64,000 nt of DNA from NCBI GenBank assembly GCA_043747595.1, contig JAYTOX010000058.1, positions 22,562-86,561 of the forward strand, read 5' to 3'. Below the pieces are notes generated by a model. It worked only from the letters and a program-made list of their open reading frames with translations. It ran no database searches and had not been told where the DNA came from. Shown piece by piece: positions 46 through 64,000 of the stretch (position 1 is the stretch's first letter; each line of letters begins with the position of its first letter). The position numbers and the translations under genes were made by a program. Source of the DNA: Bacteroidota bacterium. GTDB taxonomy: Bacteria > Bacteroidota > Bacteroidia > AKYH767-A > 2013-40CM-41-45.

Positions 46-936
46 TTAAAAGGAGAATACTCTCGATATATTAAAGCCTAATCGAATTCCCATATTGTTC
101 CATTTAGAATCGGTATGCGTAAAAAATTGATTCTCTACCAGTCCAAAGCTATTGGTAAAGTGAATTTGAAAAACGTGGCCTCCTGTTTCTAATTCATAAC
201 CAATAGACATGCTATCATAATATTTTACTGTCGGAGAATAATCATTGATTCGATACGCATACTCACCTGTTATGGCAGCACGTTTGGTAAATTTGTAACG
301 GAACAGCGCTGATACACCAAACGCATCGTTCTGATCGGTGATGTGCAACACCTGATTGTAATGAACAAACCAAGGTGCTATTTGCAAAGAAAAATTAGGA
401 CTAAATTTTCTGCCTAACATCGCCTCGAAACAATACGATAAACGACTCGATTGATTTTGGTAAATGTCATAACCATTGGCTATAGCATTACCATCTTTCA
501 AATTTGTATAATATGTTCCGGCAAATAACGTAAGACCAAACGGCATTCTATTATCGGTTGTTTGTCGTAGTAAACGATACTTCAAAAATCCATCAACCAT
601 TTTTTCTTGACTGCTTCTTCCAATCCCAAACATAAAGCGACCATCGGGACTGTATTCCAAACTCAGTCGAATATTTGCCGGGCCGTCTAATCCCCATGCA
701 TTGTAAGAGCCGGAATTTATTGGACCAAAACGGTGAGAGATTCTAAAATCAAGTGTTCGCTTACCAACCGTTTCAAGAGTATGTTGATCAACTAATCGTG
801 TTGTTTTAAAAGTTGCTATTACATAATCTTTCGCATGATCGTTAGTGGAATCTAATCCACTCAACATATCCTGACCATTCATAGAAAAGCCGATGAAAAA
901 AAGTACAGCCGATAAAATAATTTTTTTGTTGATCAT
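46..936 (-). CDS. DUF5777-like outer-membrane beta-barrel protein (paralog of 54076..54978)
   Basis: Has an N-terminal signal peptide (MINKKIILSAVLFFIGFSMNGQ), alternating beta-strand pattern and a C-terminal aromatic residue. Shares clear blocks with the 54076..54978 product: RISHxFG, KFRLLxQTxxNxxPFxL, ETGGHVF. Confidence 0.6.
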   Translation of the reverse strand: MINKKIILSAVLFFIGFSMNGQDMLSGLDSTNDHAKDYVIATFKTTRLVDQHTLETVGKRTLDFRISHRFGPINSGSYNAWGLDGPANIRLSLEYSPDGRFMFGIGRSSQEKMVDGFLKYRLLRQTTDNRMPFGLTLFAGTYYTNLKDGNAIANGYDIYQNQSSRLSYCFEAMLGRKFSPNFSLQIAPWFVHYNQVLHITDQNDAFGVSALFRYKFTKRAAITGEYAYRINDYSPTVKYYDSMSIGYELETGGHVFQIHFTNSFGLVENQFFTHTDSKWNNMGIRLGFNISRVFSF

Positions 937-939
937 AAA

Positions 940-1329
940 TTAGTTGTTGAGTTTACCACGATTCAGCCAAGCTTCAATTTTTTGTATGCTACAATCATTG
1001 ATTTTACCGCTACCTAACGGCATCCATTTAGCAGAATTAATTGAAGTGCTATGCGTAATGGTTTCCAAAAATCTACCGCTGTTGTTTATTGTACTTATAA
1101 CATCTGCATACGTCCCTAATCCATAAAGGCTGGTAGAACCATCGGTGTTGTGACAATTAGAATCTCCACTTCCACAGCTATGAAGCATGATAGGAGAAAT
1201 ATCGTTTGCAAACGAAACCGTACCCGTTGTATCGCATGGTGCAGCAGCCGGATGAAGTTCATCTACATTATCGTAGTAACAGCTTGTAAATGCTGCCATG
1301 ACTAAACAAATTGCGAATATTTTTTTCAT
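940..1329 (-). CDS. small Cys-rich lipoprotein, PSCyt1-like (Planctomycete-type cytochrome c domain-like) with C-x6-C-H motif
   Basis: Has a lipoprotein signal (..AAFTSC). Shares blocks VSFANDIxPI..C....CH, MP and WIxxG with 1333..1716 and 55540..55902. Lies 3 nt from each flanking gene. Confidence 0.5.
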   Translation of the reverse strand: MKKIFAICLVMAAFTSCYYDNVDELHPAAAPCDTTGTVSFANDISPIMLHSCGSGDSNCHNTDGSTSLYGLGTYADVISTINNSGRFLETITHSTSINSAKWMPLGSGKINDCSIQKIEAWLNRGKLNN

Positions 1330-1332
1330 GAT

Positions 1333-1716
1333 TTAATTGTTCTTTGCTCCTTGTTCAATCCAAAGGTAAATTAATTTCACTTGATCGTCTGCTAAAACAG
1401 GCAAGGGTTTCGGTGGCATTACCTTAGCAAAAAGTCTATTGCTGATAGTTTGATAGATTTTACTACCGTGTGCATTCCCCGGAGAAATACCTCCTTTAAT
1501 TATATCATCGTAGGTAATTAATGCGAATACGGAACGATCTTGTCCTGCAACATTCCCGGTATGACATCCACTTTGCGTGCAATTTCCACCAAAGATTCCT
1601 TGAACATCATTGGCAAAAGATACATCTTTCAACGTCGACAGATCAGTATCGTGCCTGCATGCACTGAGCAAAAAAGCAATTCCGATAATCGAACTATAAA
1701 TGAGATTTTTTAGCAT
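1333..1716 (-). CDS. small Cys-rich lipoprotein, PSCyt1-like with C-x4-C-H motif (paralog of 940..1329)
   Basis: Has a lipoprotein signal (LLSAC). Carries the motif GNCTQSGCH and a C-terminal block KVMPP...LIYLWIEQGAKNN, which is nearly identical to the 940..1329 C-terminus. Confidence 0.5.
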   Translation of the reverse strand: MLKNLIYSSIIGIAFLLSACRHDTDLSTLKDVSFANDVQGIFGGNCTQSGCHTGNVAGQDRSVFALITYDDIIKGGISPGNAHGSKIYQTISNRLFAKVMPPKPLPVLADDQVKLIYLWIEQGAKNN

Positions 1717-2000
1717 GTTTTTTTGGATCTATTCAGCAATTTTATGAAGAGGTCAATAACGATAGATTATTTGTTTAGATCAATGAGCAAAAAATGAATT
1801 CAAAAATTGACACTTTTCAAACCTATATTCTCTATAAAGATTCAATACTACATGTAATTAATAAACGAAGCAAGAAAAATTCTGCTCAAGAGGTAAAATC
1901 TAGATTTGATCAGGTAGATTTACATTCTGAAAAATGTGATGCGTAAATGATTTTAGAATTATTCTCGGATATTAGCATTACTTTTATATTCTAAACAGCT

Positions 2001-2337: not shown

Positions 2338-3474
2338 TTATTCTAACACCAACCGATCAATCTTACTTTGTTTCCCATCAATAAATATTTTGTAGAAATA
2401 AATTCCTCTCGACAAAGCCACTACATCTACATTCACCAAATTAGTATTGTCGAATGTATTGTTCAGAATTACATTGCCCATAATATCATAGAAAAGAATA
2501 TTGACCAATCGAACTGTTTTATCAAAACCAAAGTTCACTTGATTTGATGCCGGATTCGGATAAGTTGAAATTTTTGCTTCGTTGATATCGGCTATTGCAT
2601 TTACAGAACTCCCGGCTATATAACTCGACAAATTTAAGTAGTACACAAAATTTCCTGAACCATTATCTTCATCGGTCATAAAAATTTCATTGTTTGACAC
2701 GAACGATAACGATTCTTTTTGCGACCAGGCTCCGCTAATATTCACTTGCGTATGTTGTCCTGAAAAAAAGTTTGTGCCAATAAAATTTTTGAAGATGTGA
2801 AGATGCGAATTCGACATTAGAATCATAGCGCTACCATCGGCAGAGATATCGGCAGAGGTAATTCGATCATTCGTGTAGAAACTATCCACTAATGTTGCAA
2901 CATAACTTCCGGGGCTATCAGGTAAGCGGTACATCTTAGTGTATCCAATTGCTGCACCATCGGCTTTTGAAAATAAATACAAATTTCCATTAAAGTGAAA
3001 AAACGATTCCACATCGTAGTTTAGCCACGACGACGAAATATTTGCTTGATCAGAATAAGTGAAACTAATTGTTTGTGCAACTGCAGAAGTAGTTGATGCA
3101 CTTGGGTATGGAATTCGAAATATTTTCAGATTTGTTCTGATACAATTATTATTTCCAAAGTCGCCTATGAATAAATAGTTGCGTTGAGCATCATGAGTAA
3201 GATCTTCCCAATCATTATTAATGGCACCGTTGATAGTTATGGTTTGCTGCAATGCTCCGGCAGATGAAACACGATATAGGCGATTGTCGCCATAACCATC
3301 GTTATGCGTCCAATAAGAATCGTAACCATTGTAATCAAGGCCCGACGACTCTCTAAGCACGCTCGGCAACGAACCCTTTACTGTAGCAGTAATAGCAGAA
3401 GCAGTTTTAATGCTTAAAGCAAAAAGAAAGAGTAAGAACACCTGTTTAGGAATTCGAGTAAGTTTTATTTTCAT
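2338..3474 (-). CDS. secreted protein with T9SS C-terminal sorting domain (type A CTD)
   Basis: Has a signal peptide (MKIKLTRIPKQVFLLFLFALSIKTASA). The C-terminus ..YPNPASNQVNFGF..GIYFYKIFIDGKQSKIDRLVLE is typical of a Por secretion tail. Confidence 0.6.
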   Translation of the reverse strand: MKIKLTRIPKQVFLLFLFALSIKTASAITATVKGSLPSVLRESSGLDYNGYDSYWTHNDGYGDNRLYRVSSAGALQQTITINGAINNDWEDLTHDAQRNYLFIGDFGNNNCIRTNLKIFRIPYPSASTTSAVAQTISFTYSDQANISSSWLNYDVESFFHFNGNLYLFSKADGAAIGYTKMYRLPDSPGSYVATLVDSFYTNDRITSADISADGSAMILMSNSHLHIFKNFIGTNFFSGQHTQVNISGAWSQKESLSFVSNNEIFMTDEDNGSGNFVYYLNLSSYIAGSSVNAIADINEAKISTYPNPASNQVNFGFDKTVRLVNILFYDIMGNVILNNTFDNTNLVNVDVVALSRGIYFYKIFIDGKQSKIDRLVLE

Positions 3475-20944: not shown

Positions 20945-21402
20945 GAGGTAAAAAGTAAGAAGAGTAAGAAGTATGAAGTAAGAAGTATGAAGTAAGAAGT
21001 ATGAAGTAAGAAGGATGAAGTAAGAAGTAAGAAGTAAGAAGTAAGAAGTAAGAAGTAAGAAGTAAGAAGTATGAAGTATGAAGTAAGAAGTATGAAGTAA
21101 GAAGTAAGAAGGATGAAGTAAGAAGGATGAAGTAAGAAGTAAGAAGTAAGAAATAAGAAGTATGAAGTAAGAAGTTCGAAGTATTAAGTATGAAGTATGT
21201 CAAGGGGGACTCACCAATTACCACTCACCACTCACTAAAGAGAATGCCGTTCGGAATTAATAGTTGTTCTTCAAAAATAGTTCGTACATCTTACTAAACA
21301 TTCCGCTTTGCGGCAAAGGTCAAGTAGTAAGTAGTAAGTATGTCATAAATGGACGTGATTTTTTACTTACAACTTACCACTCACTACTTACCATTCTCAC
21401 TG
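20945..21402. repeat. compound repeat region: ~250-bp degenerate (GAAGTAA/GAAGTAT/GAAGGAT)n array + family A tail + family B unit + second family A copy
   Basis: The heptamer periodicity is visible by eye. The tail is GACTCACCAATTACCACTCACCACTCAC. A further copy ..TTTTTTACTTACAACTTACCACTCACTACTTACCATTCTCAC overlaps the CDS 3' end at 21374. Confidence 0.75.
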
Positions 21403-23968
21403 TTCGTACTTTATCTTCAAACAAAATTTTACCTATATAAATTCCCGGTGGAAGTTTTTCGTTGCTGAGCTGAATATCGTTTTTTCCGGATGTGAAAGTT
21501 ATTTTTTGCGACGATTCAACTTGGCCGGATGAATTGATTAATTGAAAAATTGCATTTCCACTTTTTGCAGAATTAAATTGAATTCGGAATTTTCCATCTG
21601 TAGGATTAGGATAAACAATAATCTGTTCCGATGAATTGCCAATAATATTATCAGCACTGAGCACTTCCAGCATATCGCCAACCATCATTCCACTTCCAAA
21701 ACTCGTGACCCAAATTAAATTTGGTTGATAAGGATCAAAGAAAACTCGCTCCGGCTGTCTAAATTGATAAGTACTAACATTCGTCCATGATGGTAATGCT
21801 AAATTCATATTAGATGATGTCCATAAACCATTGGTTTCTGTAGTGAGATATGCCTGATATAAATTCGAAGGATTAAAAGTGATTGAAGTAACTCTGTCGA
21901 ATTGAGAACCTGTCAATTTTGTCCAACTCAACCCACGATTGGAAGTTTTATACAATCCGCCAAGACCATTCGGTGCACCACCCCATCCGCTGAAGACACA
22001 TGCATACCAAGTATTTTGTGTAGCATCGTTCGGATCTATCACAACATCTTTTGTCCAATAGCGCATTCCGGCATCACTTACATCTGTCCATGAATTCGTG
22101 TTCGGATCGTAAATAAAAACACCGGAGCTCGCAGTGAATGTGCCGCTTGAATTTCTTCGTCCGGAGAATGAACAAACTACTTTACCATCGTTTAATACTA
22201 TGATACTTGCAGCGTGTCCTTCTGTGCGCGGAGGATTAGGAAGTTTTGTCCATGTAGATGTTTGTAGATTATTCAAATCATCGGTTCTGTAAATTCCTCC
22301 AAGCTGACTGCCTTGTGTACCGCCGAAATGAATTACAGATGCATACATTCTGTTTTGATTTGTTGGATCTATCGCTAACCAAAAAACAGGATGATTAAAT
22401 ACATGCAAATTGCTCCATGTACTTCCGCTGTCAGTAGAGAAAACGATTTTTCCATTTCCATCGCTGGCATCTAATTGTGCATCTGCAAGTCGTGTGCTTT
22501 GATACATATCATGAATGTTAGAACAAGCACCAAATAAATTTCCATTGGTGCTTTCTGCAATTCTATACAATGAGTTTACAGAAAATCCCGAGTATTGATA
22601 TCCCCAACTAGAACCACCATCATTGCTTGTTAGTCCACCAATATCGCTAAAGCAGCCAATCATTTTATTTGCAGAAGTCCAATGTACTTGCCAGCAAGTT
22701 GTATTTTCTAATCCTACACTGTGATACGCACGATTTTTTGGTGTTGGTATTCCGGCACTATGTTCATCTGATTGGGAAACGTAAGCTTGTCGCCATGATG
22801 TTCCTCCGTTCGAACTTACTTGGACATTAGAGAAATTACTAAAAATTACTTTTGATGAATTAAGTGGCGCAGCAGTTATTCCAAAACATGTTTCGCTCCA
22901 ACTAAAATTTTTGTCACCTTGATAGCCTTCCCAACCGGTTACGATATTAGCATTACTAATTGTTTGGTATATCGAAGACCATGTTGAACCTGCATCCGAT
23001 GATTTTAATACTAGTGGCGAACCGTTAGCATTATCATGTCCACCAAGGTAAATTGTATTAATATCATTCCACGCCATTGTACAATACATTACAAAATCGT
23101 TCGAGAAATTTATTCCCGTCGATTTTGGAACCCATGTACCATTGGCATTATCCATTGTATAAACCCCTTTAGCAAAATTGTAGTAGTCCCATGGTTTAAC
23201 TCCATTGTATGTACCTGATGAATTTGCAGTAATAGCAGTAAGTCGAAGTGTATTCCCTGATCTTGCTCCGGCGAATGACCAAATAACTTGTCCGGAAGTG
23301 ATACCGGAAGTATTCATCACAGAAAAATTAATTCCACCATCGCTGCTATGAATTAATCCGTCATTAGTGCCAATATAAATGTTTTGTCCGTCGAAGAAAA
23401 CGCCACCAAGAATTAATCCGGCGCCCATAGAGTTAGCAACTTTAACCAAATTAAAAGATGTTCCACCATCATTCGAAATCAAGATGTGGCCATACGCGCC
23501 AATGAGTAATTGATTTGGATTTGCATAATTTGCTTTCACAGAGTAAGCAGAACCGTAAGTTGACAGATTATAAGAATTCAATGTAGACCATGTTGCTCCA
23601 GCATCAAGCGATTTAACAGGGAATTCATTGTTGCCATCATTGTAAATAGTATAGGCAGTATGTCCATCGTTAGTAAATTCAAAAGTCGAAACATTTCCAA
23701 TTTGTAATTTTGAAAAGTCAGACTGATTATAACTTATACCAAAGTTAGTAGAATGAAAAAGTTGGCTCATATCGCAAGCAACATAATATTCATTATCGTT
23801 TGCCGGATTGATAGTAGGAAAAAATAAAGCACCACCGCCACCCATACCGGAATGATAAAAAGCGACAGGTTGAGCTTCAGTAAAAAGTGCGATTACACTT
23901 AGGCAAAGTGTCAGGAATGATTTGAGTTTCATTTTTCTTTTTTTTAGAATAGAAGAATAAATATCCAA
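21374..23968 (-). CDS. BNR/Asp-box repeat beta-propeller protein (GH74/sialidase-like) with T9SS C-terminal domain
   Basis: Has a signal peptide and at least seven S-x-D-x-G-x-T-W-type Asp-box repeats (SLDAGATWS, SSDAGSTWS, SSNGGTSWR, STDSGSTWS and others). The C-terminus YPNPTDGKFRIQF..GIYIGKI is a T9SS tail. The last codons (MVSSEW) are encoded by the family A repeat. Confidence 0.6.
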   Translation of the reverse strand: MDIYSSILKKRKMKLKSFLTLCLSVIALFTEAQPVAFYHSGMGGGGALFFPTINPANDNEYYVACDMSQLFHSTNFGISYNQSDFSKLQIGNVSTFEFTNDGHTAYTIYNDGNNEFPVKSLDAGATWSTLNSYNLSTYGSAYSVKANYANPNQLLIGAYGHILISNDGGTSFNLVKVANSMGAGLILGGVFFDGQNIYIGTNDGLIHSSDGGINFSVMNTSGITSGQVIWSFAGARSGNTLRLTAITANSSGTYNGVKPWDYYNFAKGVYTMDNANGTWVPKSTGINFSNDFVMYCTMAWNDINTIYLGGHDNANGSPLVLKSSDAGSTWSSIYQTISNANIVTGWEGYQGDKNFSWSETCFGITAAPLNSSKVIFSNFSNVQVSSNGGTSWRQAYVSQSDEHSAGIPTPKNRAYHSVGLENTTCWQVHWTSANKMIGCFSDIGGLTSNDGGSSWGYQYSGFSVNSLYRIAESTNGNLFGACSNIHDMYQSTRLADAQLDASDGNGKIVFSTDSGSTWSNLHVFNHPVFWLAIDPTNQNRMYASVIHFGGTQGSQLGGIYRTDDLNNLQTSTWTKLPNPPRTEGHAASIIVLNDGKVVCSFSGRRNSSGTFTASSGVFIYDPNTNSWTDVSDAGMRYWTKDVVIDPNDATQNTWYACVFSGWGGAPNGLGGLYKTSNRGLSWTKLTGSQFDRVTSITFNPSNLYQAYLTTETNGLWTSSNMNLALPSWTNVSTYQFRQPERVFFDPYQPNLIWVTSFGSGMMVGDMLEVLSADNIIGNSSEQIIVYPNPTDGKFRIQFNSAKSGNAIFQLINSSGQVESSQKITFTSGKNDIQLSNEKLPPGIYIGKILFEDKVRTVRMVSSEW

Positions 23969-24103: not shown

Positions 24104-26032
24104 ATGGCAACGCGGCTATTAATTTTTATTTTCCTCATTGTACTGATAAGTTCTTTTACCCGAAATTCAAATTCAGGTGTTACAGATCGGAATGAAAACG
24201 TCAATGAAGTTGTTCATGCTATTTTTGATGCGAATAGTTCAGAGTTCATTTCTAAGTTAGAGCTTTTGAAGTCGTTGGCACAAAAAAATAATTTCGATAG
24301 CACCACTTTAATTAAAATGAAATCGGTTTTTCTTGAATGTAGAAATCTTTATAAGATCAACGAACTATTTTCAACCTACTTTTTTCCGACCAGCGATTTG
24401 AATTGTAATGGCCCGGTAATTTCGGAGGTGGAATATGAAGATGAGCCAAAGCAAATGATCGTAAAGCCGACAGGTTTGCAAGTAATAGAAGTCAATTTAT
24501 ATTCTAACCATGTTGCGGAAAATTCGAATAAGATTATTAAACAAATTTCACATCTAATTGATATTTATTCTTCTCTTACAAATGCTTTTCATTCCAAAAA
24601 AGTAAATGAAAAATATTTTATAGAAGCCATGCGTACCGAAGTCGATCGTCATTTCTCGCTTGGTATTGCAAATTTTGACACACCAATCTGTAGAAATTCT
24701 TTTGAAGAGATAAAGCAGTCGCTTGCTTCATTAGGAATTTTAATGAAATTAATTTATTCCGATAAGCCTTCAATTGAAATTGAGAAAATTAAAAATCAAT
24801 TGAACGATATAATTGAATATTTGAATAAATTTAAATTCATTGAAGATGTTGATTTACTTTTCTGTTTGAGTAAACAGTATGTTCCATTGAGTATAGCTAT
24901 CAGCGATTACTTTTATCAATTACCAAAAACAGAATATGCACAATCAACAGCATTACGGCCTGACCAGCAATCAATTTTCGATAAACGAGGATTCAATGCC
25001 TTCTTTTATAATCCGAGAGGAGAAAATAAAAATTATTCTGTTGAAGTAGCTGAGCTCGGCAAATTATTATTTTTTGATCCGATTTTATCGCTCAATAATA
25101 AACGAGCATGTGCTTCTTGCCACAGAGCCGATATGGCATTTACGGATCAACTTCCAACAAGCGCCGGTTTTCATGCAGGAAAATCTGTTTCACGCAATGC
25201 TCCTACAATTTTGAATGTCGCGCTTCAAAGAAATTATTTCTGGGATAATCGTTCTACAGATTTAGAAGATCAAGTAGGACAAGTTATTTTCAATTCCAAT
25301 GAAATGAAAAGTAGTTATGATTTGATTATTGAAAAACTTAATAGTTCGGCCGAATACAAATCAATTTTCAAAAAATCTTTTGCCGAAACCGAAGATACCG
25401 TGATAAATAAATTTTCTATTTCAAATGCTATTGCCGAATACGAAAGAAAGTTAATAGCGATGAATAGTAAATTCGATAAGAATGTGAGAGGAGAGTTGAA
25501 TGATTTTACAGCCGATGAAAAATTAGGATTTCAAATTTTCATGACGAAAGGTAATTGTGCTTCGTGTCATTATTTGCCTATGTTCAGCGGACTTGTTCCA
25601 CCGAATTATACAAAAAGCGAATTTGAAAATATCGGCACCACAAAAACAGCCGATTTTTTAAAACCCGTTTTTGATTCGGATAGCGGAAGAGGCGCACGTT
25701 ACCGCACAAGTATTTATGTTGGGTCATTCAAAACGCCAACATTGCGAAATGTTGCATTGACATTTCCATACATGCACAACGGAGCATTTAAAACGTTAGA
25801 ACAAGTAGTAGATTTTTATAATGAAGGAGGCGGTGCAGGATTGGGATTGGACGTACCCAACCAAACTCTTAATGCAACAAAATTGAATCTTACCGCATTG
25901 GAAAAGTCTGCATTGATTTCTTTTTTGTTTACACTTACAGACACATTAGGAATGACCGATCGTCCAAATCGTCTCCCATTATTTCCAAAAAATTCAATTC
26001 TGAATAAAAGAGTAGTTGGAGGAGAATATTAG
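24104..26032 (+). CDS. di-haem cytochrome c peroxidase family protein with ~300-aa N-terminal extension
   Basis: Has two CxxCH motifs (CASCHRADMAF and CASCHYLPMF) with the CCP/MauG spacing. A PTLRNVALTFPYMHNG block is also present. Confidence 0.8.
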   Translation: MATRLLIFIFLIVLISSFTRNSNSGVTDRNENVNEVVHAIFDANSSEFISKLELLKSLAQKNNFDSTTLIKMKSVFLECRNLYKINELFSTYFFPTSDLNCNGPVISEVEYEDEPKQMIVKPTGLQVIEVNLYSNHVAENSNKIIKQISHLIDIYSSLTNAFHSKKVNEKYFIEAMRTEVDRHFSLGIANFDTPICRNSFEEIKQSLASLGILMKLIYSDKPSIEIEKIKNQLNDIIEYLNKFKFIEDVDLLFCLSKQYVPLSIAISDYFYQLPKTEYAQSTALRPDQQSIFDKRGFNAFFYNPRGENKNYSVEVAELGKLLFFDPILSLNNKRACASCHRADMAFTDQLPTSAGFHAGKSVSRNAPTILNVALQRNYFWDNRSTDLEDQVGQVIFNSNEMKSSYDLIIEKLNSSAEYKSIFKKSFAETEDTVINKFSISNAIAEYERKLIAMNSKFDKNVRGELNDFTADEKLGFQIFMTKGNCASCHYLPMFSGLVPPNYTKSEFENIGTTKTADFLKPVFDSDSGRGARYRTSIYVGSFKTPTLRNVALTFPYMHNGAFKTLEQVVDFYNEGGGAGLGLDVPNQTLNATKLNLTALEKSALISFLFTLTDTLGMTDRPNRLPLFPKNSILNKRVVGGEY

Positions 26033-42311: not shown

Positions 42312-44384
42312 TTATCTTACTAAGGTTACACTTCCTGTTTTACTTATTGTTTTACCATCAGAATAATTGATTGTTACAACATAAGTAAAAACACCCGGAT
42401 TCAAATCTTTTCCTTTATAACTTCCATCCCATCCAATCGACGGATTGTTAGTTTCAAATATTAGTTCTCCCCATCTATCATAAACTGAAAAACGAACACC
42501 ATATAGATTATTTCCTCGTAAGAATAAATAATCGTTGTGGCCATCGCCATTTGGAGAGAAAGAATTTGGAACAAAGAAATCGTTGTTATGCAAAATCGTA
42601 ACTACTACTTGTCTTGTTGTTGTACAGCCGAAACCATCGGAGATTGTACAAATGTAAATTGTAGTTTCGAGTGGACTTGCAATTGGTGTTGGCGATGTAG
42701 CACTATCTAATCCAAGCGTCGGCGACCAACTGTATGTTAATCCTCCGCCTGCTGTCATCTGATAACTGCTTCCGAAAAACATAGAAGTATCGGGTCCAAC
42801 AAAAGCCGTCGGAACACTTTCAATTCGTATGTAAGAATATTTTATTACTGTGTCAGAACCATATTGATTCGTGGCGATGAGCTGAACATCGTACAAACCA
42901 TCGGTAGCATATTGTATTCCACCTGGATTTTGTTGGCTGGAAGTATCAACGATTGCCCCCGGAAAATACCACGACCAAGAAGTAAAAGGTCCCCCGGCAA
43001 TTATTTGTCCGGCAAAAGCAATTGAAACGCGCGAACAAGCCTGAGTAATATTAGCAGTAAAATCTGCTTGAGGCAACGGGCAAACATTGGCAAGAATATA
43101 ATTTGTTTTGGTTAATGAGTCGGTGCCATATTGATTACCTACAGTAAGAGTTACAGAGTAAGTTCCGGGAGTTGCGTAGCATACCGTTGGATTAGCAGAA
43201 GTGCTGGTAGAAGGATTTCCACCGGGGAACGACCATAACCAAGAAGTAGCACCACCGGTTGAAAGATCGGTGAATGAAATACATTCTCTCTCACAAATAA
43301 CAGAATCGCTTGCTACGAAATCAGGATTTGGAGGCGTACAAGCATTTACAACCATGTAATTTAATTTTGTGGCAGTATCACTTCCGGCAGGACTAGAAAC
43401 GATAAGCTGAACAGAATAAGTTCCGGGATTTGCAAAAACAATATTAGTAGGATTTTGCGCCGATGATGTTCCGGGAGTTCCGCCGATAAAAGTCCAATTG
43501 TAATTAAGAGCTATAGTAGTTGTATCAGCAAAAAAATTAACAGAACCGCCGGCACATATTACAGTATCGCTTGCAGTGAAATCGGCGATCGGTGTTGTTA
43601 AGCTTGCTAATAAAATACTATCGATTGCTACAGATGGATTGCTGATTCCAGCACCCAATCCAAGATTCTTCCAACGAAAGCCAATTTTAACAGCAGGATT
43701 ATTATTAGCAGATGTAGGCAAAGCAATAGTGTATAACGACCATTTAAAGATGGTAGTATCACTAGCACAAAAAGCAGTTCTTGGTAATTCTGCAAGAGTA
43801 GTCCAAGCGCTTCCGTTGTAATACTCTACAAATGTATTGTCATTATTACTTCCCGGCTCATCTAATTTTCCTAACAAATAATTGAAGTTAAGGACGAGCG
43901 ATGAAACTCCAATGCAATTTATCACCGGCGATTCAACACGTTTTTCTGTTACTTCAGTAAGCATGAATCCACCCGGATCGTAGATAGCACCGCAATCGCC
44001 ATACGGACAACTAATCGCGGCCGTGGTACTATTTTCAGAACCAAAAACATTTCCAATATGTAGCGATCTTTTTGTTTGCGCAGCATTGGTTTTGCAACCT
44101 TTTACAGCACAATTACCTGAAGTTTGTCCGGGTTCCGTGGCACTGATAAACCACTCATTGGCTTTGGTACCTTGAGTTCCGATCGGGCTCACGCTCCAAA
44201 CACCACCCGAAGATGGACTCAAATAACCGGCAGCGATAGCACCGGAATCGCAGATACCAGATGTTGACCCAAAATCATCGAAGAAAATGGGAGTTTGTGC
44301 ATTGGCCTTCACTCCACAAAAGATGGAAATGATTGCGATAACGATGTTTCGGTAAAGTTTACCGGTAAAGTATTGGTGATCCAT
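42312..44384 (-). CDS. PKD-repeat secreted protein with gliding-motility-associated (type B) T9SS C-terminal domain
   Basis: The C-terminus FFVPNSFSPNGDGHNDYLF..VYDRWGELIFE..WDGSYKGKDLNPGVFTYVV matches the type B CTD. Several PKD-like repeats are present. Confidence 0.7.
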   Translation of the reverse strand: MDHQYFTGKLYRNIVIAIISIFCGVKANAQTPIFFDDFGSTSGICDSGAIAAGYLSPSSGGVWSVSPIGTQGTKANEWFISATEPGQTSGNCAVKGCKTNAAQTKRSLHIGNVFGSENSTTAAISCPYGDCGAIYDPGGFMLTEVTEKRVESPVINCIGVSSLVLNFNYLLGKLDEPGSNNDNTFVEYYNGSAWTTLAELPRTAFCASDTTIFKWSLYTIALPTSANNNPAVKIGFRWKNLGLGAGISNPSVAIDSILLASLTTPIADFTASDTVICAGGSVNFFADTTTIALNYNWTFIGGTPGTSSAQNPTNIVFANPGTYSVQLIVSSPAGSDTATKLNYMVVNACTPPNPDFVASDSVICERECISFTDLSTGGATSWLWSFPGGNPSTSTSANPTVCYATPGTYSVTLTVGNQYGTDSLTKTNYILANVCPLPQADFTANITQACSRVSIAFAGQIIAGGPFTSWSWYFPGAIVDTSSQQNPGGIQYATDGLYDVQLIATNQYGSDTVIKYSYIRIESVPTAFVGPDTSMFFGSSYQMTAGGGLTYSWSPTLGLDSATSPTPIASPLETTIYICTISDGFGCTTTRQVVVTILHNNDFFVPNSFSPNGDGHNDYLFLRGNNLYGVRFSVYDRWGELIFETNNPSIGWDGSYKGKDLNPGVFTYVVTINYSDGKTISKTGSVTLVR

Positions 44385-51515: not shown

Positions 51516-51749
51516 TTATGGTAAAGGGTCATAGCCGGAGCCGCCCCATGGATGGCAACGAGAGATTCTTTTTATTGCGAGATACAATCCTTTAAACGGA
51601 CCATATTTTTTTAAGGCTTGAATTCCATAAGCAGAGCAAGTAGGATCGAATCGGCAACTAGGTCTCAACAAAGGTGAAAGCGCCAATTGATAAAAGCGAA
51701 TAAGACCTATGAAGATTTTAGCTAGTATGCGTGATAATATCCTTAGCAA
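51516..51749 (-). CDS. yidD: membrane protein insertion efficiency factor YidD
   Basis: Carries [44 protein letters not shown]. Confidence 0.8.
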
Positions 51750-52128
51750 AGCGTTGTAGAATTAATTTTAATTTTTCTTCTGTTTCATTATAGGTAATAA
51801 TATTTTTACCGGAAAAATAACAGAGGAGAGCAACTTGAATTTTCTTGTCAGAGATTAACGTATAAATATCTGCTTTATTTTTTCTGTACGACTCACGCAT
51901 TAATCGTTTCATCCGATTTCTATCAACAGCTTTTTTAAAAAAACGTTTAGGTACACTGAAAGCAATTTGAGCAGGAAAATCTGTTTCCAACGGAGTAGCG
52001 ATCCAAGTAAGTTTAAAAGGGGGCATTGAAATTATTTTTCCTTTTGAAACCAGTAATTCGATTGCTTTACGGCTACTTAGTCGCTCTGCTTTCTTAAAAG
52101 TATAACGACGAGGTGTAGCGGCGTTCAT
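51718..52128 (-). CDS. rnpA: ribonuclease P protein component
   Basis: Carries [21 protein letters not shown] and a basic RNR-like region ([17 protein letters not shown]). It lies upstream of yidD as in the canonical operon. Confidence 0.75.
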
Positions 52129-52134
52129 TGGAAA

Positions 52135-52884
52135 TTACTTATTAGCTTTCTTGATATATTGTTCAAGCGCCATAGTCATAGAAGGGGCCGCAGGAACAGG
52201 AGCTTGAATATCTAAACGGAGGCCGGCATCGGCCACAGCCTGAGCGGTAGTAGGACCAAAAGCGGCGATGCGCGTATTGTTTTGTTTGAATTTCGGAAAA
52301 TTTTTGAAGAGAGAGGTGATTCCTGAAGGGCTAAAAAATACGAGCACATCATAGTTTACCTCCGCCAGATCGGAGAGGTCGGAGGCTACCGTTTTATAAA
52401 TAACAGCTTTTGTATAATCGATTGAAAAAGAATCGAGTGTTTCAAAAATTTCTTGTTTGTGAATATCAGTACAAGGAACAAGAAATTTTTCTTTTTTATG
52501 CTTTTTGATTAGGTCCATCAGATCGTTGATGGTTTGTTTTCCAAAAAAGATCTTACGTTTTCTATAGACTACGAATTTTTGAAGGTAATAAGCAGTTGAC
52601 TCAGAGATGCAGAAATACTTCATGGTTTCAGGAACAGTGACACGCATTTCAATGCACATGCGGAAAAAATTGTCGGCAGCATTTCGGCTGGTCAAAATTA
52701 CTGCAGTATGCTCAGCAATATTCACTTTATCTTGCCTAAAATCTTTGGCAGCAATCGGCTCTACATGAATAAACGGTCTGAAATCAATTTTAAGGTTGAA
52801 TTTCTTCGACAAATCGAAATAGGGCGACTTTTCTGTTTCGGGCTTTGGCTGTGTAACCAGGATACTTTTAACTTTCAAACTCAT
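52135..52884 (-). CDS. hemD: uroporphyrinogen-III synthase
   Basis: Has the HemD-like fold pattern (ILVTQPKPE..., two-lobed with about 250 aa). The assignment rests on overall similarity only. Confidence 0.6.
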   Translation of the reverse strand: MSLKVKSILVTQPKPETEKSPYFDLSKKFNLKIDFRPFIHVEPIAAKDFRQDKVNIAEHTAVILTSRNAADNFFRMCIEMRVTVPETMKYFCISESTAYYLQKFVVYRKRKIFFGKQTINDLMDLIKKHKKEKFLVPCTDIHKQEIFETLDSFSIDYTKAVIYKTVASDLSDLAEVNYDVLVFFSPSGITSLFKNFPKFKQNNTRIAAFGPTTAQAVADAGLRLDIQAPVPAAPSMTMALEQYIKKANK

Positions 52885-52930
52885 ACTAAGGATTTCCGTT
52901 TTCGCTATAAGTCTCGGGGTGCACAGGTGA

Positions 52931-53827
52931 TTAAGACCACATAATTCGTATCAAAATCATCAAGGGCGCAATTTCAAGAGTGCAAAGATATAAAAATAAG
53001 TAAAGCAGCGAGAAAGTTGACGTACTGAGTCCAATAAGAATACCCCTAAAAATTCGATAACCGAAGGCAAGGCCAACAATAGAAAGCCCTAAAACAATAA
53101 ACCAATGGGAAGAGAACACCTGATTATAGGCCATTAAAAAAATAAACGGAAGCAGAACAATTCCAAGTATGTTATTGATAAGAAACGTATTGAAAATATA
53201 AGTGGCCATTTCTCTTTCTAAATTAAAGAGCCGGCCGGCAATTTTCAAGATCAGAAATTTCAGTGCATAAACGAGTGAAATCAGGACTGCAAAAAGGAGA
53301 AAACGATTGAATCCGGAGCCTACTCCTCCCAGTCTCCAGCCATAATTCAAGCTTATTAGATAAAGAAAGAGCGCTGCTATGAGATTAAAAACGAGACTTA
53401 AATACGTTGACGTTCGCTGAACGAGTATATTTTCATCCCTAACAATCTGATTGGTGAGATTATTATTGACAAAAGCCAATACCATTTGCGAAAAATATTT
53501 GGTGTAAAAAATTCGTAAAGCGGCATAAACACCTAAAACTAAAAGGAGAATTGGAAAAAACCAATCGGGCGATGAGGCTGTTTTTGAAATTGGTGTTTCG
53601 TTGGCAGGATGAAGAAAATGGCCATGATAGAGGTTGGAATACACAGGTCTATTGGCAGAATCGGCTGCATAAAATGCGAGCGTATCGAACTTCCATGCAG
53701 CTCGCATTGAACTATCGATGTTAGATTTTTGAACAAGCCCTTCTGGTTTACTGAAAATATACATCGACGAATCATTCGAATGAAACGCAGAAGAATCAGA
53801 AAAAAAAACAGTAGAATCGGGCGACAT
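52931..53827 (-). CDS. DUF4271 domain-containing membrane protein
   Basis: Has multiple TM helices after a soluble N-terminus. It carries DUF4271-like blocks and lies in the typical position next to hemD in Bacteroidota. Confidence 0.55.
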   Translation of the reverse strand: MSPDSTVFFSDSSAFHSNDSSMYIFSKPEGLVQKSNIDSSMRAAWKFDTLAFYAADSANRPVYSNLYHGHFLHPANETPISKTASSPDWFFPILLLVLGVYAALRIFYTKYFSQMVLAFVNNNLTNQIVRDENILVQRTSTYLSLVFNLIAALFLYLISLNYGWRLGGVGSGFNRFLLFAVLISLVYALKFLILKIAGRLFNLEREMATYIFNTFLINNILGIVLLPFIFLMAYNQVFSSHWFIVLGLSIVGLAFGYRIFRGILIGLSTSTFSLLYLFLYLCTLEIAPLMILIRIMWS

Positions 53828-54075: not shown

Positions 54076-54978
54076 TTATTTCTTTGTCGTAGTTTTTGGA
54101 TCGCCTACCAACTTGAACATTCTGGAAATATTAAAGCTAAATTTAAATCCTCCCTTTTGCCACGAGTCCATAGTATTAACCAGGTAATCGTTTTCCAAAA
54201 TACCCGAGGCATTACTGAACATGATTGTAAATACGTGGCCGCCGGTTTCTATTTCTATTCCGGCTCCAATTACATCTGTATGCTGAAGGACCAATCGATT
54301 TCGATTCAATGTATTGGAATAATCAAAAATAATTGAAGCGCTTGGAGTAAATTTAAATCTGAACCCTCCAGATAAACTGAACGTATTGTTATCATCATCG
54401 GCAGGAACAAAATTTCGGTGAACATATGTTGGTATTACGACAACACTAAAACGAGAGGAAAATTTTCTGGCTAGTATCAGTTGCGAAACATAAACTAAAC
54501 GATAAGCGTCGCTCGTATAATCCATTCTATCTTGGGTAGAATAAGTTAAATTAGCAAAACCGGAAAGCGAAAAAGGAATTGAATTATTTTCAGTTTGATC
54601 GAGTAATCGAAATTTAACAAGTCCTTCTAAATCTTCATTCCTTTTGCAACGGCTCACACCAATCATAATATGGTCCGTTAGTCCGTAATGAAACCCAATT
54701 CGAATATCGCTCGACTGGTCAAAACCATATAAGTTATGAAATCCGCCGCCGCTTTGTGTGCCAACATTTCCGAAGAGATGGCTTATACGCACATCTAAGT
54801 TTTTTTTCTTGACAGTTTCGTTTGTGTGGATATTAATTAATTTATTTCCTTTAAACATACCGATTACCGGTAAATTAGATTTCGGTTTTTCATTTTGCAA
54901 TAATTTAAGGAGATCGTCTTGAGCAAAAAGAAAGGTAGGCAAGAAAAAGAAAAGTAAGTAGAGTAAATATTTATTCAT
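54076..54978 (-). CDS. DUF5777-like outer-membrane beta-barrel protein (paralog of 46..936)
   Basis: Has a signal peptide (LLYLLFFFLPTFLFAQ). Shares the blocks DVRISHLFG, VKFRLLDQTENNSIPFSL and IEIETGGHVFTIMFSN with 46..936. It is the last gene of the operon. Confidence 0.6.
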   Translation of the reverse strand: MNKYLLYLLFFFLPTFLFAQDDLLKLLQNEKPKSNLPVIGMFKGNKLINIHTNETVKKKNLDVRISHLFGNVGTQSGGGFHNLYGFDQSSDIRIGFHYGLTDHIMIGVSRCKRNEDLEGLVKFRLLDQTENNSIPFSLSGFANLTYSTQDRMDYTSDAYRLVYVSQLILARKFSSRFSVVVIPTYVHRNFVPADDDNNTFSLSGGFRFKFTPSASIIFDYSNTLNRNRLVLQHTDVIGAGIEIETGGHVFTIMFSNASGILENDYLVNTMDSWQKGGFKFSFNISRMFKLVGDPKTTTKK

Positions 54979-55538
54979 TTATTAATAACGTTTTTACCGG
55001 TTGCACGATAATCTAAAGTAACATTCACATCTATAATTTCTGCAATATTATGAAATAATAATTTCGGAACAGTAATATTAAAATCTTTTAATGCAACTTT
55101 GAAATTGGAGTTGATAGAGAAAGTGTTTCCATCTTTCTTATAAACCCCGTTTAGCTCAAGTTCTTTTTCAACTCCATGGATAGAAATAATTCCTTTAGCA
55201 GTAACATTATGTTCTCCATCAGAAAATGTTGCAATGGAATCTTGAATTATTCCTTTGAAGGAGGCCATAGGAAACTTATCGCTTTCCATATATTTTTCAT
55301 TGAAATGTTCTTCCATCAATTCTTTAGCGAAATGAAAATTTCGGATAGGAATAACTACGGCAATTTCATTGGTTGAACTATTAATAAAACTTGCAGCCTG
55401 TTTATTTTCTGCTTTAATATCTTCAATGGGAGCATGAGAATAAAAAGTAACAATCCCGCTCACCGCATTATATATGTTTTGCGAAAACGATGGAGTGCAG
55501 TAAATAATTAAAAAAAGAATCAGTGTTATTTTTTTCAT
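54975..55538 (-). CDS. YceI-like (lipocalin-like, polyisoprenoid-binding) periplasmic protein
   Basis: Has a signal peptide and YceI-like blocks (VSGIVTFYSHAP...; ...ITVPKLL...IEIIDVNVTLDYRA). It overlaps the DUF5777 gene by 4 nt. Confidence 0.65.
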   Translation of the reverse strand: MKKITLILFLIIYCTPSFSQNIYNAVSGIVTFYSHAPIEDIKAENKQAASFINSSTNEIAVVIPIRNFHFAKELMEEHFNEKYMESDKFPMASFKGIIQDSIATFSDGEHNVTAKGIISIHGVEKELELNGVYKKDGNTFSINSNFKVALKDFNITVPKLLFHNIAEIIDVNVTLDYRATGKNVINK

Positions 55539-55539
55539 T

Positions 55540-55902
55540 TTATTTTTCGGGGTAACCTTGTTGAATCCACGATTTCAATTGAAAGTAATCGCATTCACTA
55601 ATATGATACTTTTCGGGCATGTGCTGAGGGTCGTTCAAAGGGAGGTCTATTCTGTATTCTATGGTTCCCGAACGAATTCGATTGACAACTGTTTTATAGT
55701 TGGTATAATCATAAGCGCCTTTTCCTCCGGGTGCATGACATTCAGTAAAATTGCAATTCGCATTCAAGATCGGTAAAATATTGGTGTTAAATGTAAATCG
55801 AACGCTATCACAATTATTCGGACGGAAAATAGTTTCAACCATCTTTTCCTTTGTACAAGAAATTATGGTTAAGCAAAAAAGACCGATCCAAATAGATTTC
55901 AT
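55540..55902 (-). CDS. small Cys-rich lipoprotein, PSCyt1-like with C-x4-C-H motif (third paralog)
   Basis: Has a lipoprotein signal (LFCLTIISC) and carries ILPILNANCNFTECHAPGG...MPEKY...LKSWIQQGYPEK. The internal Met is chosen as the start. Confidence 0.5.
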   Translation of the reverse strand: MKSIWIGLFCLTIISCTKEKMVETIFRPNNCDSVRFTFNTNILPILNANCNFTECHAPGGKGAYDYTNYKTVVNRIRSGTIEYRIDLPLNDPQHMPEKYHISECDYFQLKSWIQQGYPEK

Positions 55903-55971: not shown

Positions 55972-56646
55972 TTAAAAAATAGCTTGTGTTCTTTCCACAA
56001 CCCAGTAAAGAGCGATTAACGAAATACAGAGAGAAACAGGAATAGTCACAAATTTTCGATACCAATTTTGGTCAGAAAAACGAGTTTGGAAAACGATAAT
56101 GGCAAGAAAAATAACGGCCGTTTGTCCTGCTTCTACGCCAATATTAAACGATATCAGAGCCGACATAAAATCCTTTTCAGGCAAACCGATATCTGCTAAG
56201 ACGCCGGCAAATCCTAGTCCGTGGATAAGTCCGAATAAAAAAACGACGATAAGCCTCCACCACTTCAGTTCTGTTATTAAAATATTTTCTACTCCAATAA
56301 AAACTATTGATAGCGCAATTAAAGGCTCAACTATTGCTCCTTGCGGATGAATCATATTGTTCATCGCCAGTGCCAATGTTATGGAATGAGCAATTGTAAA
56401 ACACGTTACTTGAGCCAAAACAATTTTTAATTTCGGATTAAATAAAAATATGCCTAATACAAATAAAATATGATCGAAACCAAGAGGAAGAATGTGTTGA
56501 AATCCAAGTTTCAGATATTCCCAAAACAAATTGACCTTCGACATACCCTCAAGATCGTAAGCCATAGTGTGAGCTGAGCTTGAAAATGAAATCAAGGTAA
56601 ACAAGCAAAAGCTGATCAAGAATTTATTTTCGGTATTCAACTTCAT
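55972..56646 (-). CDS. HupE/UreJ family metal (Ni/Co-type) transporter
   Basis: Has 6 TM helices. His-rich motifs (HILPLGFDHILFVLG, HGLGFAGVL) are in TM segments, as in HupE/UreJ. The start overlaps the TPR gene stop (ATGA). Confidence 0.65.
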   Translation of the reverse strand: MKLNTENKFLISFCLFTLISFSSSAHTMAYDLEGMSKVNLFWEYLKLGFQHILPLGFDHILFVLGIFLFNPKLKIVLAQVTCFTIAHSITLALAMNNMIHPQGAIVEPLIALSIVFIGVENILITELKWWRLIVVFLFGLIHGLGFAGVLADIGLPEKDFMSALISFNIGVEAGQTAVIFLAIIVFQTRFSDQNWYRKFVTIPVSLCISLIALYWVVERTQAIF

Positions 56647-57974
56647 CAGTTAGCGGCTAAATAATTTTTATTTTCCCATTTCAACAAAACAGGTAAAAAC
56701 GGATTTGTACTTAAAGCCGATTGAATCAGCTTTACACCTTCAACACGGTTTCCTGATTTACTGAGTATAAGTCCGGCTTGATAATGAAGAACTGGATTCT
56801 GTGAATTCGTTCTTAAAGCTCTCACGACATATTTATTTGCTTTTTCAAAATCGCCTCGTTTGTAATATACCCAAGCTAAAGTTTGCTCAACATCAATATT
56901 ATCGGGACGGCGATTATATTCTATCAAAGCATGTTTTAATGCTTTGTTATAATCATAGGCGTTAATGTACGCGATAGCAAGTTCTTTATCGGCATAATGA
57001 CCATGATTTTTAACGCTCTCATCACCACTCACGCCAGCAAGCAATTCAATGGTTTTCTGCGCAGCTATGTATGCTAATTTAGGTTGGTTACTTATTCGAT
57101 ATACTTCCGACAACTCTTCTTCAAAAGAGAAATCGTCGATTATAGCAATGGCTTTTTTCAAATAATTAATTGAAGCAATGTAGTTACGCTTTGCTTTTTC
57201 AATGCGAGCCAAACCTGCATAAGCAAAAGAAAAAATAGGGCGATAATAGATTGCTGTTTCATATTGAAGTTGCGCTGAATCGAGCTGACCAGTTTGCTCA
57301 TACAAATGTCCGAGTTGAATTCGCGTCCATTCTGTAGCTTCCATTCCGGGATAGCCGGACTGAAGCGATAATTTCATTGCACTGATTGCTCCTGGATAAT
57401 CGCCATGAATTTCTCTTAAGTAGGAAATTCTACTATACGATCGATTATCAGGACGAAGTAATGCCATTTTATCGGCCATCACAATTGCATTTTGGTAGTC
57501 GCCATTTTCTACAAATGCATCGGTGAGAATTCCATAAACAGCAGTGCTATAAGGATTGATTCGTTGTGCATCTACAGCTATTGGAATTGCATCAGAAAAA
57601 TGATGTTGCGATAAAAGCACAGTTGCCTTTCCTATTAAGGATTCAAAATTTGTTGAATCTTTTTTAAGTACACTGCTAAAAAGTTCCAATGCCTTCGGAT
57701 CATAATAAGCATGCTCTCCTGATTCTCTCGACTCTTGAATATATGCAAACCCTAACTTCACTTTTGCTTCTTGGTTTTCAGGATTGATGCGAAGCGTTTC
57801 GATAAGCGATTGAATCGCTGCTTTACTATTAATCCATTCATTAGAAGATGCTGATTGACCTTGACGAATTTTAATTCCAAGTTTCAACTGATCAGGAGTT
57901 CTAAATTCTATGATTGCAAAAGAAAAGATGCTCACAAAAGAAAGAAGAAAAATGTATGCGATATTTTTTTTCAT
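56646..57974 (-). CDS. tetratricopeptide repeat protein (periplasmic/membrane-anchored)
   Basis: Has multiple TPR-like helical repeats and an N-terminal TM/signal (MKKNIAYIFLLSFVSIFSFAII). Confidence 0.65.
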   Translation of the reverse strand: MKKNIAYIFLLSFVSIFSFAIIEFRTPDQLKLGIKIRQGQSASSNEWINSKAAIQSLIETLRINPENQEAKVKLGFAYIQESRESGEHAYYDPKALELFSSVLKKDSTNFESLIGKATVLLSQHHFSDAIPIAVDAQRINPYSTAVYGILTDAFVENGDYQNAIVMADKMALLRPDNRSYSRISYLREIHGDYPGAISAMKLSLQSGYPGMEATEWTRIQLGHLYEQTGQLDSAQLQYETAIYYRPIFSFAYAGLARIEKAKRNYIASINYLKKAIAIIDDFSFEEELSEVYRISNQPKLAYIAAQKTIELLAGVSGDESVKNHGHYADKELAIAYINAYDYNKALKHALIEYNRRPDNIDVEQTLAWVYYKRGDFEKANKYVVRALRTNSQNPVLHYQAGLILSKSGNRVEGVKLIQSALSTNPFLPVLLKWENKNYLAAN

Positions 57975-58052
57975 GGTTCGAGTAATTGAAAAGATATATT
58001 TAAAAATAAGGACCGAAGCGATACACACTTCGGTCCTTGCTAAAAACAACCA

Positions 58053-63466: not shown

Positions 63467-63470
63467 TTTA

Positions 63471-64000
63471 TTATTTACGTAAGTGGATTTGGCATCCGAT
63501 TGATTTTGTTTCTTTAATTTGTATTTCATTTCCTTTTAATAAAGCGTCAACTGCACTTTCAATATACTTTGTCGTTACTTTAGTAGGCTCAGCTCCGTTA
63601 TCATCTATAGCTCCATTGTATTTCACAATATAAGCACCCTTTTCTTTCCAGATTACGAAAGCGTGTGGAGTTTTTTGAGCTTGAAAGTTTTTGGCAACAG
63701 TTTGAAATCCGTCGTACAGATAAGGGTAATTAAATTTTTCGGCTTTTGCCTTAGCAATCATTTTCAGATATGAATCCTCTTCATAAGTAAGCGTATCGGT
63801 CGAACTAATAGCGATAACCGGTACATCAAGCGATTTGTATTTTAGGTTCAATTTGTTAATTCGTTGAGGATATAACTTAGCAAATGGGCAATGGTTGCAG
63901 GTAAAAATAATTACAAAGCCTTTCGCTTTAGGATAATCTTTTAAAGAAACATTTTTTCCATTAATATTTTTTAAAGAAAAATCGTTTACGCTTTTGCCAT
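63471..64000 (-). CDS. TlpA/ResA-like thiol:disulfide oxidoreductase (thioredoxin fold), N-terminus beyond window end
   Basis: The in-frame upstream extension gives GFVIIFTCNHCPFAK, a CxxC motif. AhpC/TSA-redoxin-like blocks follow. The frame is open at the window edge. Confidence 0.65.
   Translation of the reverse strand, partial: GKSVNDFSLKNINGKNVSLKDYPKAKGFVIIFTCNHCPFAKLYPQRINKLNLKYKSLDVPVIAISSTDTLTYEEDSYLKMIAKAKAEKFNYPYLYDGFQTVAKNFQAQKTPHAFVIWKEKGAYIVKYNGAIDDNGAEPTKVTTKYIESAVDALLKGNEIQIKETKSIGCQIHLRK

Follow-up and report, generated by a model that had tools for sequence, protein, structure and literature searches.

Positions 46..1716 of the DNA analysed here, a 64,000-nucleotide (nt) window of a Bacteroidota bacterium (assembly GCA_043747595.1, contig JAYTOX010000058.1, positions 22,562-86,561 of the forward strand), probably form a complete three-gene operon, in which two lipid-anchored monohaem c-type cytochrome domains are followed by a 12-stranded barrel of the family DUF5777. 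We consider the chances slightly better than even that this operon is a derived, YceI-less copy of a module found across Bacteroidota, the standard copy of which lies at 54076..55902 of the same window. The proteins of the operon are annotated as hypothetical. Neither the module nor its variable, stretched haem motif in a monohaem lipoprotein is described in the literature that we searched, and the folds of the components are already known.

The operon and its counterpart in the same window

The genes of the two loci and the motifs discussed below are as follows; the genes at 46..1716 are open reading frames (ORFs), the motifs were read from the sequence, and Cx4CH, Cx6CH and the like give the number of residues between the two cysteines.

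1333..1716, minus strand: lipoB, 127 amino acids, first gene of the operon, distal to the barrel
1561..1581, minus strand: CTQSGCH (Cx4CH), candidate haem motif of lipoB
940..1329, minus strand: lipoA, 129 amino acids, second gene of the operon, next to the barrel
1150..1176, minus strand: CGSGDSNCH (Cx6CH), candidate stretched haem motif of lipoA
46..936, minus strand: barrel 1 (DUF5777), 296 amino acids
55540..55902, minus strand: lipoC, with ATG start at 55902, lipobox IISC, CNFTECH, Met-Pro, Trp and a Cys pair
55735..55755, minus strand: CNFTECH (Cx4CH), motif of lipoC
54975..55538, minus strand: YceI-family lipocalin (PF04264, 46.5 bits), adjoining lipoC
54076..54978, minus strand: barrel 2 (DUF5777; PF19089, 263 bits), 36% identical to barrel 1

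The three ORFs of 46..1716 share the minus strand and are separated by exactly 3 nt each (TAAatcATG and TAAtttATG), so the coordinates and gaps of the earlier, sequence-only reading are verified. Barrel 1 had no match in an exact-sequence look-up, and its genomic context was taken from its 96%-identical relative P0031. In the related locus L087, the barrel of which is 96% identical to barrel 1, the operon stops after the barrel, and therefore nothing of the window-start operon has been lost at the window edge. The whole window holds three members of the cytochrome family, two DUF5777 barrels, one YceI and no more of these. About 100 nt upstream of the lipoB start, at 1818..1825 on the minus strand, the short motif TAGGTTTG is a tentative match to the Bacteroidota -7 promoter consensus, TAnnTTTG.

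The small lipoproteins as candidate cytochrome c domains

The lipoboxes LLSAC (lipoB), FTSC (lipoA) and IISC (lipoC), with a lipobox Cys that is invariant in the family alignments, identify all three small proteins as predicted bacterial lipoproteins. Pairwise similarity among them is weak (E of 3e-7 for lipoA-lipoB, 1e-5 for lipoA-lipoC and 0.009 for lipoB-lipoC). A profile built without lipoB and lipoC nevertheless scored them at 36.5 and 45.9 bits, against 7.3 bits for the best of 1000 shuffles, and the family alignments have ordered blocks in common: the lipobox Cys, F..I.PI...C-x(n)-CH, Y, MP and W..G. The sequence-only reading had called the three proteins paralogous Cys lipoproteins and had asked whether their similarity lay in ordered blocks or in mere composition. 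Both results favour ordered blocks and a single family of lipobox lipoproteins, but the cysteines from which they took their name would be the haem-attachment C-x(n)-CH of cytochrome c domains.

In lipoB the relevant residues are C46-TQSG-C51-H52, M100-P101 (nt 1414..1419) and W119. The Met-Pro and the Trp of the C-terminal helix are invariant in the homolog alignments, and the His together with the invariant Met would provide the axial ligands of a c-type cytochrome. The distant homologs P0029 and P0030 have the canonical CxxCH, P0027 and P0028 have Cx5CH, and Cx6CH is found in the lipoA clade. LipoA and lipoC, but not lipoB, also have another pair of cysteines (C32/C113 in lipoA), probably a disulfide.

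A profile search of 1.84 billion cluster representatives recovered 14,954 relatives at E <= 1e-3, many of them with 2-8 tandem copies of the domain. The top relatives clear the Pfam cut-offs for Cytochrome_CBB3, PSCyt1, Cytochrom_C and PccH. Even a profile made only from the Cx6CH lipoA clade recovered six of eight Pfam-certified cytochromes, at 24-53 bits per domain against 5.3 for shuffles. The profile matches in PDB are four, all weak and all to cytochrome c domains; three of them align at the motif, and in 7q21_C the MP of the family aligns, at the sequence level, with MPK of the QcrC cytochrome c subunit. The cytochrome identity of the lipoproteins therefore leans mainly on sequence profiles, with modest support from the fold.

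That the organism matures c-type cytochromes follows from a canonical di-haem cytochrome c peroxidase (PF03150 at residues 315-464) encoded at 24104..26032 on the plus strand. This protein of 642 amino acids has two canonical CASCH motifs and, ahead of the domain, an N-terminal region of ~300 amino acids without assignment. Peroxidases of this type need a small cytochrome c as electron donor.

Spacing of the haem motif

In the set of loci described below, the family is represented by 156 domains, among which Cys..Cys-His is kept in 156, Met-Pro in 155 and Trp in 156. The spacing between the two cysteines varies: n=2 occurs in 70 domains, n=3 in 4, n=4 in 71, n=5 in 2, n=6 in 8 and n=9 in 1, the Cx4CH consensus being C-[AT]-x-[SP]-G-C-H. 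The top 150 wider relatives contain 420 domains, all with C..CH (231 with n=2 and 172 with n=4). Their most frequent architecture, found in 55 of the 150 proteins, is a fusion with a Cx4CH domain first and a CxxCH domain second, for which reason the gene order lipoB then lipoA looks like a split version of this di-domain unit.

A census covered 74 operons in which a pair of single-domain cytochrome genes immediately precedes the barrel. The distal gene, in the position of lipoB, is Cx4CH in 70 of the 74. The barrel-proximal gene, in the position of lipoA, is variable, with Cx2 in 26 operons, Cx3 in 14, Cx5 in 12, Cx6 in 16 and Cx9 in 6; Gly, Ser, Thr and Asn are abundant in its loop inserts. 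The nearest metagenomic relatives of lipoB (55% identity) are in loci L094-L097, where three cytochrome genes stand in a row with Cx4, Cx4 and Cx6 motifs (e.g. L097:2095-3499).

Insertion of residues between the haem cysteines has precedents in CX3CH and CX4CH of multihaem cytochromes and in CX15CH of MccA/SirA, and the Cx4CH of the family matches the CX4CH that is accepted as a haem-binding variant (PMC11492766). Unlike these published variants, the variation here falls in a monohaem domain, and Cx2/3/5/6/9CH form an orthologous series at one operon position.

Paralogous DUF5777 barrels

PF19089 (cut-off 23.1 bits) matches both barrels over its full length, positions 1-247 of 247, with 288 bits for barrel 1 in addition to the 263 bits of barrel 2. 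The two proteins are 36% identical over 278 residues (E 7e-59) and have in common the blocks RISHRFG/RISHLFG, YRLLRQTTDNRMPFGL/FRLLDQTENNSIPFSL and ETGGHVF, which bears out the paralogy claimed from the sequence. Since each barrel has separate orthologs at 54-96% identity (54-92% for barrel 2), they are ancient paralogs and not recent duplicates. Barrel 1 is predicted to have 12 strands and has a signal-peptidase-I signal ending ..NG|QD, in keeping with the transmembrane beta-barrel fold and N-terminal signal peptide of DUF5777; its fold matches to 12-stranded barrels are generic. Under standard outer-membrane protein topology, the invariant ETGGH would lie in a periplasmic turn; partners or ligands might bind there or at the conserved N-terminal segment ATFK..R....H.

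Conserved linkage across Bacteroidota

A DUF5777-based scan with one genome per species gave at least 599 relatives, and the best 80 loci, which belong to Bacteroidota without exception, were analysed. Among the carriers that the scan recovered are cultured members of Dyadobacter, Emticicia, Hymenobacter, Pinibacter and Adhaeribacter. Unbiased clustering of their ORFs recovered DUF5777 in 80 loci, YceI in 67, the cytochrome in 62 (63 by hidden Markov model), a tRNA_anti-like protein in 37 and a Rieske protein in 10. The cytochrome lies beside the barrel on the same strand in 63 of the 80, with one stray match elsewhere in the loci. In the reverse test, a metagenome scan with a lipoB-type alignment, the barrel was present in 47 of the 50 loci that had enough downstream sequence. 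Approached from either side, the lipoprotein and the barrel recur as a conserved unit, as the sequence-only reading had proposed. The two do not always co-occur, however: in nine cytochrome-less loci, a Rieske [2Fe-2S] lipoprotein with a twin-arginine translocation (Tat) signal, above the PF00355 cut-off, is encoded directly upstream of the barrel. Counting the cytochrome loci and these nine Rieske-only loci together, a small one-electron carrier therefore stands beside the barrel in 72 of 77 informative loci.

Because YceI accompanies DUF5777 in 67 of the 80 loci, it is a core component of the module in most lineages and not an addition. Against the structure of BcnB (5ixg), the YceI protein of the window gave a weak match.

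Rieske lipoproteins occur in L025, L026, L027, L029, L030, L032, L035, L037, L060 and L067, ~450-550 nt upstream of the barrel at ~6001, in Dyadobacter, Emticicia, Arcicella and related Cytophagales. They are the sole redox partner in 9/10; L026 has, in addition to the Rieske protein, a di-domain cytochrome downstream of YceI. In L005, a Rieske gene adjoins the barrel on the opposite strand. A fourth gene often joins the module: in 37 of loci L031-L085 (e.g. L031:4917-5345) it encodes the tRNA_anti-like protein (PF12869), a small, membrane-anchored protein with an oligonucleotide/oligosaccharide-binding (OB) fold, and in most cases it stands between those for the cytochrome and YceI; the window has no such gene.

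Five loci encode, inside or beside the module, a protein of ~280 amino acids (407 in L055) with an N-terminal CxxCH in the form of CTDCH, CSGCH or CTSCH: L018:7506-8342, L023:4769-5617, L054:4468-5349, L055:2491-3711 and L072:4533-5384. The L018 protein, the one scanned, has a C-terminal sorting domain of the type IX secretion system (T9SS), and these proteins may be surface-exported cytochromes.

A derived clade without YceI

Of 41 Cx2/3 operons, 32 have YceI after the barrel; none of the 25 Cx5/6/9 operons does. The association of loop expansion with absence of YceI (Fisher p 5e-11) is not independent evidence, because in a neighbour-joining tree of the barrels all Cx5/6/9 operons, that of the window included, fall in one contiguous clade, within which the loop lengths are interspersed. 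Most likely, YceI was lost once, and indels then arose repeatedly in the loop. The sequence-only reading had taken the window-start operon for the bare core of the module and YceI for something added elsewhere; the tree reverses this, as it was the single derived clade of the operon that lost YceI.

The accessory insert and neighbouring genes

Upstream of lipoC, the second locus continues into genes assigned by Pfam:

55972..60128, minus strand: accessory insert, co-transcribed with the second locus
55972..56646, minus strand: HupE_UreJ_2 membrane protein
56646..58049, minus strand: TPR protein
58053..60128, minus strand: DUF4331 protein with T9SS tail

In close relatives, the genes of the syntenic part of the second locus run in the order cytochrome, YceI, barrel, DUF4271, HEM4 and RNase P. 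The DUF4331-TPR-HupE trio is present in L091/L092 and not in the otherwise syntenic L089/L093, and phmmer with the HupE, TPR and DUF4331 proteins of the window found no match in any of the 80 genomic DUF5777 loci. This absence rules the trio out as a part of the core module and, together with L089/L093, makes it a variable insert. The proposal that the second locus had added YceI, HupE, TPR and DUF4331 is thereby kept for the last three, but not for YceI. A full-text search for DUF4331 returned no papers, and no solved relative was found.

Directly downstream of barrel 2, 51718..53827 on the minus strand encodes DUF4271, uroporphyrinogen-III synthase (HEM4, of haem biosynthesis) and the RNase P protein; their conservation in L089, L091 and L093 may reflect synteny within the lineage and need not mean that they are functionally linked. 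The same three relatives have a pair of extracytoplasmic function (ECF) sigma factor and RskA_C anti-sigma factor directly upstream of the cytochrome-YceI-barrel unit (L089:6708-8012, L091:1871-3233 and L093:6577-7925). No such pair adjoins the second locus of the window, where the gene upstream of DUF4331 (60523..61758) has a T9SS sorting signal. The window is rich in T9SS cargo (Por_Secre_tail or CHU_C, at 2338..3474, 21374..23968, 42312..44384, 60523..61758 and 61805..63529), which includes an arylsulfotransferase-like protein.

Proposed function and comparison with known systems

A conserved barrel accompanied by a lipid-anchored one-electron carrier, and usually by YceI, suggests that redox chemistry takes place at the outer membrane. 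That a Rieske protein can stand in for a haem c protein in the module supports this reading. Judged from sequence, one-electron transfer at the outer membrane is a reading that we hold as somewhat more probable than its negation. The module would consist of a small one-electron carrier (of the cytochrome c family or a Tat-Rieske lipoprotein), the DUF5777 barrel and usually YceI. The cytochromes would be exported by Sec, lipidated and furnished with covalent haem at C-x(n)-CH, its axial ligands being the His and the invariant Met. Anchored in the outer membrane, they could relay single electrons from the periplasmic c-type pool, along a path from the distal Cx4CH cytochrome (lipoB) to the barrel-proximal cytochrome with the variable loop (lipoA) and on to a substrate at, or passing through, the barrel. 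For the window-start operon, YceI might be supplied in trans by the second locus. In this scheme we infer haem attachment, localisation and orientation at the outer membrane, the flow of electrons and the substrate.

The chemistry that we would favour is a redox reaction of quinones or lipid radicals at the outer membrane, analogous to that of YceI and cytochrome b561 (BcnA/LcoA). Two published findings suggest it: YceI proteins bind ubiquinone-8 and act with cytochrome b561 against lipid peroxidation (PMC9113575), and Cbp2D unites YceI-like with cytochrome c domains (PMC8981238). As a specific assignment, antioxidant chemistry of this kind is tentative. As with BcnA/LcoA (PMC9113575), a conserved operon joins a YceI lipocalin to an envelope haem protein of electron transfer. 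BcnA/LcoA, however, has a membrane b561, whereas the module has a c-type lipoprotein or a Rieske protein, plus an obligate outer-membrane barrel; the YceI gene adjoining a b561 gene that marks BcnA/LcoA was not found, and no b561 was seen. Cbp2D of Cellvibrio (PMC8981238) resembles the module in combining a YceI-like X158 domain with two c-type cytochrome domains for extracytoplasmic electron transfer, but all its domains, a carbohydrate-binding module among them, belong to a single secreted protein, which has canonical CxxCH and no barrel.

In Cyc2 and MtrAB/porin-cytochrome complexes (PCC), too, a c-type cytochrome is linked genetically with a beta-barrel of the outer membrane, a likeness that suggests redox at or across the outer membrane. 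Their barrels have ~16-26 strands and enclose, or are fused to, multihaem or fused monohaem cytochromes, which is not the arrangement found here. The 12-stranded barrel rules out an MtrAB-type sheath, and a Cyc2-type fusion is rejected since no fused cytochrome-barrel protein was found. Cytochromes of the PccH, FoxE and PSCyt1 types have CxxCH; the window proteins are Cx4CH/Cx6CH lipoproteins that score under the Pfam cut-offs and whose genes accompany that of a DUF5777 barrel.

Several observations weigh against a redox module of lipoprotein cytochromes. No cytochrome of the window clears a Pfam cut-off (lipoB reaches 19.3 bits against PSCyt1, with a cut-off of 22; lipoA and lipoC have no Pfam cytochrome match), none has the canonical CxxCH, and a scan of NCBIfam gave sub-threshold matches only, to LIC11213_lipo and cytochrome c551. 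Both structure models are of moderate confidence only (predicted local-distance difference test, pLDDT, of 75 and 71), and Foldseek with the lipoA model against PDB found nothing significant, the top match being FoxE at E 2.8. The published haem motifs (CXCK, CX2CK, CX3CH, CX4CH, CX11CH, CX15CH and CX17CH; PMC11492766) do not include Cx5CH, Cx6CH or Cx9CH, and the long CX15CH requires a dedicated synthase (PMC10663686). Five informative DUF5777 loci have no detectable redox partner. The barrel is missing from 3 of the 50 cytochrome loci, of which L097 and L103 were inspected; L097 is the only member of L094-L097 with enough downstream sequence, ~3 kb. The window-start operon itself is without YceI, which its clade lost, and the analogies based on YceI are therefore weaker for this copy. 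A full-text literature search for DUF5777 found no paper that mentions it.

The main rival to electron transfer towards quinones or lipid radicals is a split porin-cytochrome for metal redox, which we regard as improbable. The barrel would be a channel for Fe, Cu or Ni/Co, and the lipoprotein cytochromes would oxidise or reduce the ion at its periplasmic mouth, much as in the Cyc2 monohaem cytochrome-porin but without the fusion, for the uptake or detoxification of metals. In structure, lipoA comes closest to FoxE, which oxidises Fe(II), and to PccH. In the window and in L091/L092, the second locus is co-transcribed with genes for a membrane protein of the HupE/UreJ type and for a DUF4331 protein that is secreted, which would fit metal handling, as would the ECF sigma/anti-sigma pairs of L089, L091 and L093 and the CxxCH proteins of five loci, T9SS-tailed as scanned in L018. 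None of the 80 loci, however, contains the HupE/DUF4331 trio, which the close syntenic relatives L089/L093 lack as well, and YceI, the commonest partner, binds lipid or quinone and has no obvious role in metal transport. The lack of fused cytochrome-barrel proteins and the generic nature of the barrel's fold matches also speak against a metal porin.

Somewhat less probable again is that the proteins with stretched motifs, above all the Cx6CH lipoA, have a cytochrome fold without covalent haem, the Cys pair and His forming a disulfide or a metal site in a structural or chaperone lid for the barrel. Such a role would account for motifs that are not known to attach haem, for a loop that drifts among 5, 6 and 9 residues within one clade with Gly/Ser/Thr/Asn-rich inserts, and for Pfam cytochrome models missing the lipoA clade; the dependence of long motifs elsewhere on dedicated synthases points the same way. 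Loss of haem is hard to square, however, with the retention of both Cys, His, Met-Pro and Trp in 155-156 of the 156 domains. Moreover, Cx4CH is equally non-canonical, yet it is an accepted haem motif and as frequent as CxxCH in the family, and Cx2CH and Cx3CH orthologs stand at the same operon position. Chance resemblance in composition among small Cys lipoproteins, with a meaningless adjacency to the barrel, is very improbable: the marginal BLAST similarity of lipoB and lipoC would allow it, but it is refuted by the leave-out profile scores and the linkage from both sides in independent lineages, and neither the ordered blocks nor the 3-nt gaps agree with it.

Implications

Together, DUF5777, YceI and either a cytochrome c lipoprotein or a Rieske protein may possibly constitute an unrecognised outer-membrane electron-transfer system of Bacteroidota, for quinone, lipid-radical or metal redox, with functional Cx2/3/5/6/9CH motifs in the barrel-proximal cytochrome that are served by an unusually permissive or dedicated System II synthase. 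In this full form the proposal is speculative. It nevertheless offers a concrete biochemical identity for hypothetical proteins and for a barrel family absent from the literature searched. The delivery and use of electrons at the outer membrane of aerobic Bacteroidota are essentially unexplored, and the three-part module, with at least 599 representative Bacteroidota genomes as carriers, bears on them. The tolerance of cytochrome c synthases is documented in the literature only for CxxCH, CX3CH, CX4CH and a few very long motifs with dedicated synthases. In the orthologous Cx2/3/5/6/9CH series, evolution would have run an experiment on how varied a substrate these enzymes accept.

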